DNA of 32,000 bases from Ruminococcus albus 7 = DSM 20455 (GTDB lineage Bacteria > Bacillota > Clostridia > Oscillospirales > Ruminococcaceae), in NCBI RefSeq assembly GCF_000179635.2, contig NC_014833.1, positions 3,540,001 to 3,572,000 of the forward strand. The letters run 5' to 3'. Positions 14,789 through 19,527 of this stretch are shown here, in pieces. The notes below the pieces were generated by a model. The model was not told the origin of the DNA. It saw only the letters and a program-made list of their open reading frames with translations, and ran no database searches. The stretch's first letter is position 1, and each line of letters begins with the position of its first letter. A program made the position numbers and the translations under genes.

Positions 14789-15943
14789 TTGAATATTAAA
14801 TATATCGGTCTCAGCGAGATAAACGGACCTCTGGTAGTTCTTGACAAATGTAAGAACGTAAGCTATGACGAGATAGCCGATATCGAGCTGGACAACGGCA
14901 CCCACCGTCTGGCGCGTGTTGTTGAGGTATACGAGGATAAGGCAGTACTGCAGGTATTCGAGGGCACCAAAGGGCTCTCACTGAAAAATACCACCACAAG
15001 CTTTGAGGGCAGACCCATGGAACTCCCCCTTTCGGACGAGATGCTGGGACGTATCTTCAACGGTGCAGGCAAGCCTATTGACGGTCTTGGCGATATAGTT
15101 GCAGAGGAGAGCCGCGATATCAACGGCGAACCGCTTAACCCCGTATCCCGTGTATACCCCAGGAACTATATAAATACAGGTATATCGTCTATAGACGCAC
15201 TTATGACCCTGATAAGAGGTCAGAAGCTGCCTATATTCTCAGGCTCGGGACTTTCACACAACAAACTGGCTGTACAGATAGTACGTCAGGCTAAGATAGC
15301 TGATGAAGCAGGTCAGGATTTCGCGGTAGTATTCGGTGCTATGGGCGTTACCAATGACGTTGCTGACTATTTCCGCAGAAGCTTCGAGGAAACAGGCGTT
15401 CTGCAGAGAGTTGCCATGTTCCTGAACCTTTCAAACGACCCTATCATCGAGCGTATACTTACTCCCAGATGCGCACTTACCTGCGCTGAGTATCTGGCAT
15501 TCAAGAAGAATATGCATATCCTCGTCATACTGACAGATATGACTTCATACGCGGAAGCACTCCGTGAGTTCTCATCCTCAAAGGGTGAGATACCGGGAAG
15601 AAAGGGCTATCCGGGATACCTTTATTCCGACCTTGCTTCTATCTATGAAAGGGCAGGCATCGTAAAGGGTGCAAACGGTTCTGTTACACAGATACCCATA
15701 CTCACCATGCCTAATGACGATATCACCCACCCTGTCCCCGACCTTACGGGATATATAACCGAGGGTCAGATAGTACTGGACAGAAACCTTGATGCTACAG
15801 GCGTATATCCGGGCGTTGCCATACTGCCCAGCCTTTCAAGACTTATGAAAGACGGCATAGGCGAGGGCTATACCCGTGAAGACCACCAAATGTGCGCTAA
15901 CCAGCTGTTTGCGGCTTATGCTAAGGTACAGGATGCGCGTTAG
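14789..15943 (+). CDS. ntpB: V-type ATPase subunit B, as terminated by an in-frame TAG at 15941-15943 (384 aa; about 78 aa short of full length)
   Basis: TTG start after GGAGGTGG. Conserved B-subunit segments ([48 protein letters not shown]). The ORF stops inside the conserved AYA...AR-x-LA..IGEE block. Confidence 0.9.
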
Positions 15944-17113: not shown

Positions 17114-17706
17114 ACAAACTAAAAAAAGCATTCAGCGGTTTTGCAGTGCTTTCCATATTCTGTATAGTAATGGGTATCGCACTGATCATTGATCCGAACA
17201 TATTCACTAGAGTGGTAGGACTTGTAGTAGGCGGTTTGATCGCCGCTATGGGAGCTGCATCGCTGATAAATTACTTTATACGCGCAAATACCGATCCCGA
17301 GAACGCTAGTGGGCTTGTTAGCGGTGTTATACTGGTGATATCAGGCGTATTCATAATGGTAAGACCGGATTTTATCCCGAAGGTCATAGCCTTCGTATTC
17401 GGTGCATATATGCTGATAAGCGGTATCACAAATATACAAGGCGCTATGCAGCTGAAGCATAATAACAGTCCCCGCTGGACAAAGGCTATGCTGACAGCTG
17501 TACTTACTGCACTGACAGGCATACTGCTGGTGATCAATCCCCTGCTGCTTGCCGATGTTACTTTCAGGCTGCTGGGTATATGCCTGCTGGTATCGGGTCT
17601 GACTAATATAGGCGGAAGCCTGCTGACAGGCAGAAACAAGCCCGATGAAGGATCCTATAAAATGGATGGCCGCAGCGACGGACAGAAATTCATTGATATC
17701 GACTGA
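17110..17706 (+). CDS. HdeD/DUF308-like six-TM membrane protein, translationally coupled to ntpD
   Basis: Its TTG start overlaps the ntpD TGA (TTGA at 17110-17113). Has repeated Gly-rich TM hairpins (GGLIAAMGAASLINYF, GVILVISGVFIMV, GAYMLISGITNI, GICLLVSGLTNIGG) as in HdeD-family proteins. Confidence 0.65.
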   Translation: MNKLKKAFSGFAVLSIFCIVMGIALIIDPNIFTRVVGLVVGGLIAAMGAASLINYFIRANTDPENASGLVSGVILVISGVFIMVRPDFIPKVIAFVFGAYMLISGITNIQGAMQLKHNNSPRWTKAMLTAVLTALTGILLVINPLLLADVTFRLLGICLLVSGLTNIGGSLLTGRNKPDEGSYKMDGRSDGQKFIDID

Positions 17707-17712
17707 TACGAT

Positions 17713-17740
17713 AAGCAGTCCCGCGTGGACTGCTTTTTTT
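17713..17740 (+). terminator. Rho-independent terminator of the V-ATPase operon
   Basis: GCAGTCC-cgcgt-GGACTGC followed by TTTTTTT. Confidence 0.8.
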
Positions 17741-17759
17741 GTGCTGTGCCGCGTACAAT

Positions 17760-17795
17760 ATATAGCGAAACACAATATATTGTGTTTCGCTATAT
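17760..17795. promoter_or_regulatory. 36-bp perfect palindrome whose core (17770-17785, ACACAATATATTGTGT) matches the NrdR-box consensus
   Basis: ATATAGCGAAACACAATA|TATTGTGTTTCGCTATAT reads identically on both strands. NrdR-box consensus as I recall it: acaCwAtATaTwGtgt. Confidence 0.55.
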
Positions 17796-17960
17796 GCCTA
17801 TCTTCAAATCGTGGATTTTTTAACAATGTGCCCGCAGAACCCTGAAAAGCGCTGTATCGCAGCAGAACGCATAGCAGTTCATACAAAAATATGAATATGC
17901 ATTCGTAAACTATGCCAAAAAAGACACCGTGTTATTGTGCAAATTTCCGTGGTAAAAGAC

Positions 17961-17989
17961 TTGACAAATACAATATCTTGTGATATGAT
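17961..17989 (+). promoter_or_regulatory. Near-consensus sigma-A promoter of the NrdD-like mini-gene, with an NrdR-box-like site (17968-17983) in the spacer
   Basis: TTGACA (17961-17966), 17-nt spacer, TATGAT (17984-17989) with TG at -15/-14. The spacer ATACAATATCTTGTGA matches 13/16 of the NrdR-box consensus. Confidence 0.6.
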
Positions 17990-18031
17990 AATAAACGTAC
18001 TACAATATAATGAAGAAAAGAGGAAAGAAAC

Positions 18032-18304
18032 ATGATAAACGTAAATGTTAAGAACGGCGAGCTTACCGAAGAAGAAAAGCAGGCATATATCTCCAGAGCG
18101 CATGACCTCTATCCCGGTAAGGCTATCGACTCGATAGACATCTCACTTGACGGTGATTACGCTGAGGTAGATTATCATTTCTCCGCTGTTCCTTTCCAGA
18201 GGATAAGGAGAATAACAGGATACCTTGTAGGCACACTTGACCGCTTCAATGATGCTAAGCGCAGTGAAGTCGAGGACAGAGTCAAGCACGGTGTCATCAG
18301 CTAA
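18032..18304 (+). CDS. Stand-alone glycyl-radical-domain protein resembling the C-terminus of anaerobic ribonucleotide reductase NrdD (90 aa)
   Basis: The C-terminal RIRRITGYLVGTLDRFNDAKRSEVEDRVKHG parallels the NrdD radical segment (R-x-x-G-Y-L-G...F-N-x-G-K-x-x-E-v-x-x-R-V-K-H). GAGGA RBS, own promoter and terminator. Confidence 0.7.
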   Translation: MINVNVKNGELTEEEKQAYISRAHDLYPGKAIDSIDISLDGDYAEVDYHFSAVPFQRIRRITGYLVGTLDRFNDAKRSEVEDRVKHGVIS

Positions 18305-18337
18305 GACCTTCAATTTTATTATTTGTTTTTTATTGGC

Positions 18338-18371
18338 AAAAGCCGTTCCGTTAACGTGGAACGGCTTTTTT
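18338..18371 (+). terminator. Rho-independent terminator of the NrdD-like mini-gene
   Basis: AAAAGCCGTTCC-gttaacgt-GGAACGGCTTTTTT. Confidence 0.8.
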
Positions 18372-18436
18372 GTATCTGTATGTATTTTAATGAAATATCG
18401 GGGAAAAATAAAATTGTAAACATTTTATGAACCCTA

Positions 18437-18500
18437 TTGACTTTTGGTAGATAGTGTGCTATATTTAGTTTGTACACAAAACATTGGTATACAAACTAAA
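18437..18500 (+). promoter_or_regulatory. Promoter of the gpx operon, with an overlapping inverted repeat that is the likely OhrR operator
   Basis: TTGACT (18437-18442), 17-nt spacer, TATATT (18460-18465) with TGc upstream. The inverted repeat TTTAGTTTGTA (18464-18474) / TACAAACTAAA (18490-18500) spans the -10 and start region. Confidence 0.55.
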
Positions 18501-18541
18501 ATCAAAAACCTGAATAAATAATATCCAAGGAGGAAAGCACT

Positions 18542-19081
18542 ATGTCGATCTATGAAAACAAACTGAAAATGAGAGATGGAAGCGAGTATAGTCTTGAGGA
18601 ACTGAAAGGCAAGGTCTTGCTGATAGTAAATACAGCCACCGGCTGCGGCTTTACTCCGCAGTATAAAGGTCTGGAGGATCTGTATGAGAACTACCGTGAC
18701 AAGGGTCTGGAGATACTTGATATCCCCTGCGACCAGTTCGGTCATCAGGCACCCGGCGATGACAATGAGATACACGAGTTCTGCACCATGAAGTATGACA
18801 CAAAGTTCCCCAGATTTGCAAAGTCAGAGGTAAACGGTGAAAATGAACTTTCGCTGTACACTTTCCTGAAATCCGAGATGGCTGAGGACAGCGTGAACGG
18901 TCTGAAAAACAAGACCATAATGAAGGGCGTTGAAAAACTCAGCACCACCTGCAAAAATAAAGGCGACATCAAGTGGAATTTCACTAAATTCTTAGTTGAC
19001 CGTCAGGGAAATGTAGTAGGCAGATATTCACCTACCACAAAGCCCGAAGACCTTGAAGAGGAGATCAAGAAATATATATGA
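18542..19081 (+). CDS. gpx: Glutathione peroxidase family protein (Cys-type)
   Basis: LLIVNTATGCGFTPQY active-site motif with a TGC Cys codon, plus IKWNFTKFLVDRQG. AAGGAGGA RBS. Confidence 0.9.
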   Translation: MSIYENKLKMRDGSEYSLEELKGKVLLIVNTATGCGFTPQYKGLEDLYENYRDKGLEILDIPCDQFGHQAPGDDNEIHEFCTMKYDTKFPRFAKSEVNGENELSLYTFLKSEMAEDSVNGLKNKTIMKGVEKLSTTCKNKGDIKWNFTKFLVDRQGNVVGRYSPTTKPEDLEEEIKKYI

Positions 19082-19527
19082 GCGATAAATACGATCCTAT
19101 ACGGCTGAGGAACCAGCTCTGCTATCCACTTTACCTCTGTGCCAAGGAGGTAACACGAAGGTATACACCTATACTGGAAAAACTTGAGCTGACTTATACG
19201 CAATACGTTGTCATGATGTACCTGTGGGAACAGGACGGCTGCACTGTAAATCAGATGAGTTCAGCACTCATGCTCGATCCGAGCACACTGACCCCCCTGC
19301 TGAAAAAGCTTGAAAGCAAGGGCTATATCAGACGTACCCGCAGCGAGACAGATGAGCGCAGCCTGAACATCGTACTGACAGAAACGGGCGATGCTCTTAA
19401 AGATGAAGCACTGTCCGTACCCGAGCAGATGAAATGCTGCATAGGGCTGACCCCCGAGGAAGGCGCTACCTTCTGCGGACTAATAATGAAGATACTGAAA
19501 AATATCGAAGATACAGAAAAGGAGTGA
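19078..19527 (+). CDS. ohrR: MarR-family organic hydroperoxide sensor OhrR
   Basis: The LRNQLCYPLYLCAKEVTRRYTPILEKLELTYTQYVVMMYLWE pattern, including the sensing Cys in the QLC(F/Y)xLY context, resembles B. subtilis OhrR. Its start overlaps the gpx stop (ATGA). Confidence 0.8.
   Translation: MSDKYDPIRLRNQLCYPLYLCAKEVTRRYTPILEKLELTYTQYVVMMYLWEQDGCTVNQMSSALMLDPSTLTPLLKKLESKGYIRRTRSETDERSLNIVLTETGDALKDEALSVPEQMKCCIGLTPEEGATFCGLIMKILKNIEDTEKE

Follow-up and report, generated by a model that had tools for sequence, protein, structure and literature searches.

What purpose could be served by a gene that encodes only the radical-bearing end of an enzyme? The question is raised by a 90-aa protein encoded in a stretch of 32,000 nucleotides from Ruminococcus albus 7 (NC_014833.1, positions 3,540,001 to 3,572,000; called the window below, with its first letter as position 1). 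The C-terminal part of this protein corresponds to the glycyl-radical tail of NrdD, the class III (anaerobic) ribonucleotide reductase (RNR). Oxygen destroys glycyl radical enzymes by chain cleavage at the radical glycine, and a spare radical domain, GrcA/YfiD, is known only for pyruvate formate-lyase (PFL). A 2021 paper on YfiD speculated that further enzymes of this class may have such parts, and a review of June 2026 describes those for enzymes other than PFL as yet to be found. In the full-text literature outside subscription-only sources, no description of an NrdD spare part, of a stand-alone radical domain, or of a split or truncated NrdD was found. An earlier sequence-only reading of the locus knew of no characterised NrdD-specific spare part. 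The analysis described here indicates that the 90-aa protein is probably a glycyl-radical module encoded apart from its enzyme, under NrdR control, activated by NrdG and working inside NrdD.

The kinship of the tail with NrdD was proposed in the sequence-only reading and has been borne out by profile, sequence and profile-profile comparisons. The Pfam family NRDD (PF13597) is matched over its final 30 positions (533-562 of 562) by residues 55-86, with E 4.3e-7 and 29.4 bits, above the gathering score of 26.2 bits. Three NCBIfam NrdD equivalogs, TIGR02487 and NF005497 among them, match the tail only (best 2e-11), with scores of 42.8, 40.7 and 30.1 bits versus cut-offs of 764, 736 and 326. When profiles of 38 family members and 43 clostridial NrdD C-termini were compared with hhalign, residues 51-89 were aligned with a probability of 99.7% (E 3.6e-27, 67% identity). 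The protein also aligns with residues 685-738 of the Prevotella copri NrdD structure 8p23; six residues are missing from the query where the chain reads CPKCGS, which holds the second Cys pair of the zinc ribbon. The radical loop and the helix, RRITGYLVGT..RFN..K..E..DRVKH, are shared with the C-terminal domain of NrdD from phage T4, Escherichia coli and P. copri.

The remainder of the enzyme is missing. In contrast to NrdD, the protein has no barrel, no Cys finger loop and no ATP cone, and is thus not a full-length NrdD; nor can it form a zinc ribbon, since it contains no cysteine. The lack of a barrel and of a four-Cys ribbon had been noticed beforehand, and only NRDD positions 533-562 are matched. 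The product is identical to R. albus 7 ADU23634.1 (WP_013499740.1, UniProt E6UFW0), which databases currently call either 'Uncharacterized protein' or 'anaerobic ribonucleoside-triphosphate reductase'. As the protein is not an enzyme, the latter name is misleading. In front of the tail, AlphaFold2 models an N-terminal domain (residues 3-50) with block-mean pLDDT values of about 79-86; the tail is modelled with low confidence and contains one helix. A Foldseek search of this model against the PDB gave nothing below E 0.07, and the sub-significant matches are the generic beta-alpha-beta of ribosome hibernation factors. The idea that the N-terminal domain duplicates the final beta-alpha-beta unit in the NrdD barrel was rejected after hhalign of residues 1-52 against the region preceding the tail (P 0.039, probability 1.3%).

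A match to only the last 35 residues of NrdD could also mean that the gene is a non-functional leftover of a partial nrdD duplication, annotated by gene callers. The data on selection and conservation effectively refute this reading, which is now extremely unlikely. With a full NrdD as tblastn query, the window is matched only at 18170-18289, so no nrdD remnants flank the gene; nrdD, nrdG and nrdR were not found within the window, and an Rfam scan of 17500-18600 gave no score near any gathering score. Between R. albus 7 and a 93%-identical relative (locus L007), 42 synonymous and 8 nonsynonymous changes were counted, which correspond to a pN/pS of 0.053 for the whole gene, 0.046 for its N-terminal half and 0.061 for the tail. 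Both halves of the protein are under purifying selection. In an exhaustive HMMER search of 1.84 billion representatives, 487 clusters (50% identity) were retrieved at E <=1e-10; the family is one of Clostridia, and the full 90-aa architecture is kept in about as many clusters. The best 150 of the 487 clusters are all short (68-236 aa, nearly all 70-145 aa), and no second Pfam domain was found in any of ten longer family members. The gene has, moreover, its own conserved promoter, NrdR boxes, ribosome-binding site and terminator. The earlier statement that it is not a gene fragment is therefore upheld, and the open reading frame (ORF) had been given with the exact coordinates and ATG.

The radical site itself is conserved. 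Among 38 diverse aligned members, R60, T62, Y64, L65, N73, K76 and E79 are invariant, and Gly63 is kept in 37 of the 38 as well as in all ten members of a second alignment. One family member (P0245, alignment A1) reads YRATDYLV instead of RRITGYLV, with aspartate for glycine and further changes in the tail, and is possibly a degenerate or neofunctionalised copy. A scan of GTDB species genomes gave 80 loci with near full-length matches, which by record title belong to Ruminococcus, Oscillospiraceae, Christensenellales, some Lachnospiraceae and Erysipelotrichaceae, Zhenpiania hominis and others.

A second line of evidence concerns regulation. An NrdR site consists of two 16-bp boxes with a linker of 15-16 bp and the key positions C4, A6, A8, T9, T11 and G13 (Shahid et al. 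2026, PMC13584703). The box in the promoter spacer and the weaker box downstream of it, both noted in the sequence-only reading, agree with this definition in sequence and in tandem spacing (Table 1), and with their 16-bp linker they are the only canonical tandem pair in the window. Box 1 takes up the spacer and box 2 lies over the predicted start of transcription; NrdR, when bound, would therefore keep RNA polymerase off the promoter. The promoter is the best site of the region and is conserved in relatives; together with box 1 it is almost invariant in four of them (L002, L007, L008 and L009). The consensus ACACWATATATWGTGT finds only two sites with three or fewer mismatches in the window, both in this intergenic region. 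Across the 80 loci, single NrdR boxes number 41 in 32 kb of upstream sequence versus 15 in 1166 kb elsewhere, an enrichment of about 100-fold, while canonical tandem pairs number 45 in 25.9 kb upstream versus 5 in 1172 kb (about 407-fold) and occur at 39 of the 80 loci. On this comparative evidence of boxes, conservation and enrichment, membership in the NrdR regulon is well supported, and control of the 90-aa gene by NrdR is a strongly supported prediction. Of the other NrdR-box matches inside the fetched loci, the one checked in detail (L010) precedes a GTPase-like ORF with no nrd similarity. In these loci, nrdD, nrdG and nrdR were found in none except L033.

Further upstream, a perfect NrdR box at 17770-17785 was overlooked in the sequence-only reading. 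A similar box precedes the gene at a comparable distance in L007 (-261) and, by alignment, is present in L002. The palindrome that encloses it lies about 19 helical turns (198 bp) from box 1, and neither a gene nor a separate promoter can be made out there. The palindrome could serve NrdR as an auxiliary site, through looping or oligomerisation. The core ACAATATATAG of the adjoining box U1 is one of four copies found in a repeat search. A separate motif, TTGTGCAAAT (17930-17952), is conserved just upstream of the -35 element in five relatives and could be either a degenerate NrdR 'box 0' (17937-17952, separated from box 1 by a 15-bp linker and agreeing at four of six key positions) or the site of another factor.

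Linkage to the genes of the class III RNR is seen in part of the family. In one clade, the small gene stands between nrdD and nrdG, usually with nrdR next. The operon of L033, checked against Pfam, encodes a protein with ATP cone and NRDD, the small protein, a radical-SAM protein of Fer4_12 type and NrdR, and its promoter holds a perfect NrdR box; the layout is the same in L087, L090-92 and L093-95. In the operons of relatives, the small gene directly precedes nrdG. Where a full-length NrdD and an adjacent small protein occur together, their tails are identical over 32 aa, with synonymous to nonsynonymous differences over 34 codons of 9:1 in L033, 2:2 in L090-92 and 3:3 in L093. This identity was discarded as proof of co-evolution; since NrdD tails hardly differ among these species in any case, it is read as equal functional constraint on both copies. 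In several NrdDs and several small proteins of the operon clade (L033 4630-4669 and 4951-4983; L090, L093, L098, L100), ...RVKH is followed by a short extension with cysteine, for example FMSECNCD, SLECSCAEF or DTNCYECFV, and a similar C-terminal stretch (THGECASLESF) is retained by some tail-less NrdDs despite deletion of the radical loop.

These associations bear on a different possibility, namely that the protein serves another glycyl radical enzyme or activase, such as PFL through PFL-AE, in the manner of GrcA. R. albus, a fermentative anaerobe, probably has other glycyl radical enzymes on general grounds. Nevertheless, such a role is very unlikely: the tail is of the NrdD type (PF13597), the PFL-type Gly_radical family PF01228 gave no match in a Pfam scan of the protein even at E up to 10, the predicted regulator is NrdR, and the operon partners are nrdD, nrdG and nrdR.

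The relation between the small protein and NrdD becomes more specific in lineages whose NrdD lacks the radical site. The NrdD of L087 terminates in ...ERIRRIKSYKV, where RRITGY is expected, and the allele was seen in three independent samples. With this protein as query, 120 close NrdDs were listed (67-100% identity where reported). The RxxGY motif is absent from 44 of them, which end or diverge after a conserved ER(I/L), about where the radical motif would begin. The tail-less NrdDs (within P0271-P0390) have at least seven different short C-termini, which suggests repeated independent tail loss, and around 20 separate 90% clusters end in ...ERILRIRR. Since their genes have no internal stops and their dN/dS (0.11-0.23) lies in the range of the full-length genes (0.16), they are not decaying pseudogenes. 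In all eight tail-less lineages examined (Table 1), a small NRDD-tail gene is found directly downstream, followed by nrdG. The small proteins concerned are 47-58% identical to that of R. albus and share its architecture, apart from the one in Subdoligranulum variabile. In this cultured species, placed in the family Oscillospiraceae by its NCBI record, a 53-aa tail-only ORF, MAQIETNIEAKNGKGVGFERIRRITGYLVGTLDRFNDAKRAEEHDRVKHGMQH (L104 3962-4123), with its own Shine-Dalgarno sequence lies between the tail-less nrdD and nrdG. In L096 (6225-6256), the final nrdD codons AGA ATA AGG AGG TAG occupy the Shine-Dalgarno position for the small gene, whose ATG follows about 5 nt past the nrdD stop, which suggests translational coupling. 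The end of nrdD in L096 and the separate tail ORF in S. variabile show that these arrangements evolved and are not sequencing errors.

Two side observations concern the same proteins. In a relative (P0472), the corresponding region reads through in frame, which would yield an NrdD whose degenerate first tail copy and intact tail are separated by an insert of about 50 aa; this hints at the route by which the split arose. Several PLSDB 'plasmid' records that carry nrdD resemble chromosome pieces or whole chromosomes, namely those of S. variabile (L104), Monoglobus TSDC17.2 (L105, which also carries smc) and the 2.63-Mb record of Acetoanaerobium noterae (NZ_CP154629.1).

Most simply read, NrdD in the tail-less lineages has no radical glycine available other than that on the small protein, and the family would then be able to provide the radical domain in trans; judged from these sequences, it very probably does so. 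A role as regulator or decoy is harder to reconcile with them. Here the free tail would compete for NrdG, or act as a radical sink or store, and so tune the activation of the class III RNR. A recognition sequence equal to that of the NrdD tail, co-regulation with the nrd genes and an additional N-terminal domain with no detectable homologue would all suit such a role, but tail-less NrdDs under purifying selection need a radical source, for which the small protein is the sole candidate in their operons, and a pure inhibitor would leave the repeated loss of the cis tail unexplained. We regard this explanation as improbable.

The supply of a radical domain in trans, which we favour, would proceed as follows. 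NrdR on the two promoter boxes would repress transcription, so that the gene would be made together with the other nrd genes. NrdG would use S-adenosylmethionine to abstract a hydrogen atom from Gly63 in the RRITGY loop. The 35-residue tail would then dock in the NrdD barrel, where the enzyme's own C-terminus usually lies, and pass the radical to the active-site cysteine.

What remains to be weighed is whether the R. albus protein is a spare or a standing part. The sequence-only reading had compared it to GrcA/YfiD and proposed a spare-part domain for oxygen-damaged NrdD. The first half of that proposal, the supply of the radical in trans, has gained support from the 44 tail-less NrdDs among 120 and from the adjacent small gene in eight of eight cases; the word 'spare' fails in those lineages in which the small protein carries the sole tail. 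In R. albus, the chances are about even that the protein replaces the tail of NrdD when this is missing or destroyed, for example by oxygen cleavage at the radical glycine. Such a role is favoured by the lack of linkage between the gene and nrdD in R. albus, compared with their adjacency in all eight tail-less cases, and by the coexistence of a full-length NrdD with the small gene in L033, L090 and L093.

The main competitor, which uses the same chemistry, is an obligate radical subunit: the R. albus NrdD would itself be tail-less, and the 90-aa protein a constitutive, essential piece of a two-piece class III RNR. The frequent absence of the Gly motif among related NrdDs and its pairing with the small gene in every tail-less lineage examined agree with this, as does S. 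variabile, an Oscillospiraceae member with a tail-less NrdD and a 53-aa tail ORF. The apparently recurrent tail loss suggests that the cis tail is dispensable once the small gene exists, and a strong promoter, ribosome-binding site and NrdR co-regulation would permit stoichiometric supply. On the other hand, the small gene is unlinked in R. albus and immediately downstream of nrdD in every tail-less case, the NrdD of Monoglobus is full length, the operon clade includes full-length NrdDs accompanied by the small gene, and the R. albus nrdD itself has not been seen. Taken together, we consider an obligate subunit in R. albus possible, but the less likely of the two.

Several findings count against the favoured reading or its spare-part form. 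The R. albus nrdD was not found in the window, among the 86 small-gene loci (of which L033 holds an nrdD) or in plasmid records, and a chimeric query that joined a conserved zinc-ribbon stretch to the tail of the window returned only short C-terminal NrdD fragments and no R. albus nrdD. The eight tail-less NrdDs with an adjacent small gene fit an obligate subunit at least as well as a spare part, and in many lineages the small protein appears to be an obligate subunit rather than a spare, because it holds the only tail there. In operons with a full-length NrdD, the small gene is apparently co-transcribed and not stress-induced. About half of the 80 loci have no recognisable tandem NrdR pair, the tail of the AlphaFold2 model is of low confidence, and the adjacency to oxidative-stress genes (see below) is confined to R. 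albus and close relatives.

Among known systems, GrcA/YfiD of E. coli and Y06I of phage T4 are the closest in design: in a small protein (127 aa in YfiD, 90 aa here), the C-terminal part reproduces the glycyl-radical segment of a large glycyl radical enzyme. The stand-alone radical glycine lies in an R-x-x-G-Y context (RRITGY here), the N-terminal half is non-homologous and of unclear role in both, and by analogy the R. albus protein is presumed to be activated by the activase of its partner and inserted in trans. It is, however, not a member of the GrcA/YfiD family (IPR011140), whose radical domain is PFL-type (PF01228) and not NrdD-type. Further differences are the predicted fold of the N-terminal half, which is disordered in YfiD, the predicted regulation by NrdR, and the loss of the partner's own tail in many lineages, which is not known for PFL and GrcA. 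An autonomous glycyl-radical protein for an enzyme other than PFL, with natural split forms, would be new relative to GrcA/YfiD.

Small proteins encoded beside a large glycyl radical subunit are also found in benzylsuccinate synthase (beta and gamma) and 4-hydroxyphenylacetate decarboxylase (gamma). These subunits are needed for the function of the large subunit and bind Fe-S clusters or modulate it. They have no radical glycine, in contrast to the 90-aa protein, which carries the radical site. Carriage by phages, as for T4 Y06I, was considered and rejected: the two GenBank virome scaffolds that carry the small gene, labelled 'UNVERIFIED: Bacteriophage sp.' (L106, MT838827.1; L107, MT837046.1), otherwise encode AcrB, a nitroreductase, YfhO and AraC, and are probably bacterial DNA in the virome.

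Table 1. Sequence features at the 90-aa gene (positions in the window) and tail-less NrdDs at other loci.
Feature	Position or locus	Strand	Details
NrdR-like box U1, GTACAATATATAGCGA	17753..17768	.	6/6 key positions; 1 bp from box 17770-17785, non-canonical spacing
Perfect 36-bp palindrome enclosing the perfect NrdR box, ATATAGCGAAACACAATATATTGTGTTTCGCTATAT	17760..17795	.	inverted repeat, 100% complementary
Perfect NrdR box, ACACAATATATTGTGT	17770..17785	.	16/16, 0 mismatches; 198 bp upstream of box 1
Sigma-70-type promoter, TTGACA (17961-66), 17-nt spacer, TATGAT (17984-89)	17961..17989	+	11/12; extended -10 TG
NrdR box 1 in promoter spacer, ATACAATATCTTGTGA	17968..17983	.	13/16; 6/6 key positions
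NrdR box 2 over predicted transcript start, CTACAATATAATGAAG	18000..18015	.	5/6 key positions (T11 is A)
Ribosome-binding site, AAAGAGGAAAG	18017..18027	+	GAGG at 18020-23, 8 nt before ATG
Coding sequence, 90-aa stand-alone NrdD glycyl-radical protein	18032..18304	+	ATG start, 0 Cys
N-terminal domain, residues 1-50	18032..18181	+	predicted beta-alpha-beta-beta (AlphaFold2 model)
NrdD-type glycyl-radical tail, residues 54-86, PFQRIRRITGYLVGTLDRFNDAKRSEVEDRVKH	18191..18289	+	Pfam, NCBIfam, 8p23 alignment, hhalign
Radical Gly63 codon, GGA	18218-18220	+	within RRITGY
Intrinsic terminator	18338..18373	+	14-bp stem (18338-18369), then T run
Tail-less NrdD P0271	L087-89
Tail-less NrdD P0377	L096/97
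Tail-less NrdD P0314	L098/99
Tail-less NrdD P0272	L100/101
Tail-less NrdD P0358	L102/103
Tail-less NrdD P0289	L108
Tail-less NrdD P0316	L110/111
Subdoligranulum variabile tail-less NrdD	L104 (OY725842.1)		759 aa

The immediate surroundings of the gene in R. albus leave it on its own. Upstream, a gene for a DUF308 protein closes a V-type ATPase operon and has its own terminator (17713-17735); downstream, gpx, a gene for a MarR/OhrR-type regulator, trxA and trxB form a separate transcription unit with its own promoter-like site at 18437-18465. As the 90-aa gene also possesses its own signals, it is read as monocistronic. The sequence-only reading had said as much, and the promoter, ribosome-binding site and terminator that it named were all located. 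It had further pointed to the position directly upstream of gpx-ohrR-trxA-trxB. The neighbours are indeed these, but a conserved functional link with them did not hold up: clustering of neighbours over the 80 loci gave no conserved neighbour, and the adjacency is lost beyond close relatives. Because the unit is separate and the adjacency not conserved, the oxidative-stress neighbours are given little weight. Two observations concern these flanking operons. Within 18437-18505, the promoter-like site of the gpx unit is followed by an inverted repeat, TAGTTTGTA...TACAAACTA (about 18468-18500), to which the MarR/OhrR-type regulator (gene at 19078-19527) probably binds as its operator. In the V-type ATPase operon, the B subunit ORF (14789-15943) encodes 384 aa here and in GCA_000621285.1 (L004), an assembly of the R. 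albus group that the window matches, compared with 462-463 aa in other contigs carrying the same operon, which looks like a frameshift, a premature stop or an assembly error.

For the anaerobes concerned, which include major rumen and gut fibre degraders, the family represents a widespread candidate radical part for an essential DNA-precursor enzyme, and the NrdR regulon would gain a member that is not an enzyme. A systematic mis-annotation can be corrected at both ends, as the 90-aa protein has been named a full reductase and databases name the tail-less NrdDs as complete anaerobic ribonucleotide reductases. Cultured organisms are at hand for the family, among them R. albus 7 and 8, S. variabile and Z. 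hominis. The tail-less NrdDs resemble complementation experiments made by nature and suggest a class III RNR of two subunits. It is conceivable, though we would give it clearly less than an even chance, that the class III RNR is a two-piece enzyme in a large part of Clostridia, with the radical on an exchangeable protein of 6-10 kDa, and that in R. albus the 90-aa protein is essential beside a tail-less NrdD. If this were true, an oxygen-damaged carrier could be discarded without loss of the 85-kDa enzyme, and the arrangement would be a quaternary organisation new to ribonucleotide reductases and to glycyl radical enzymes as a whole.

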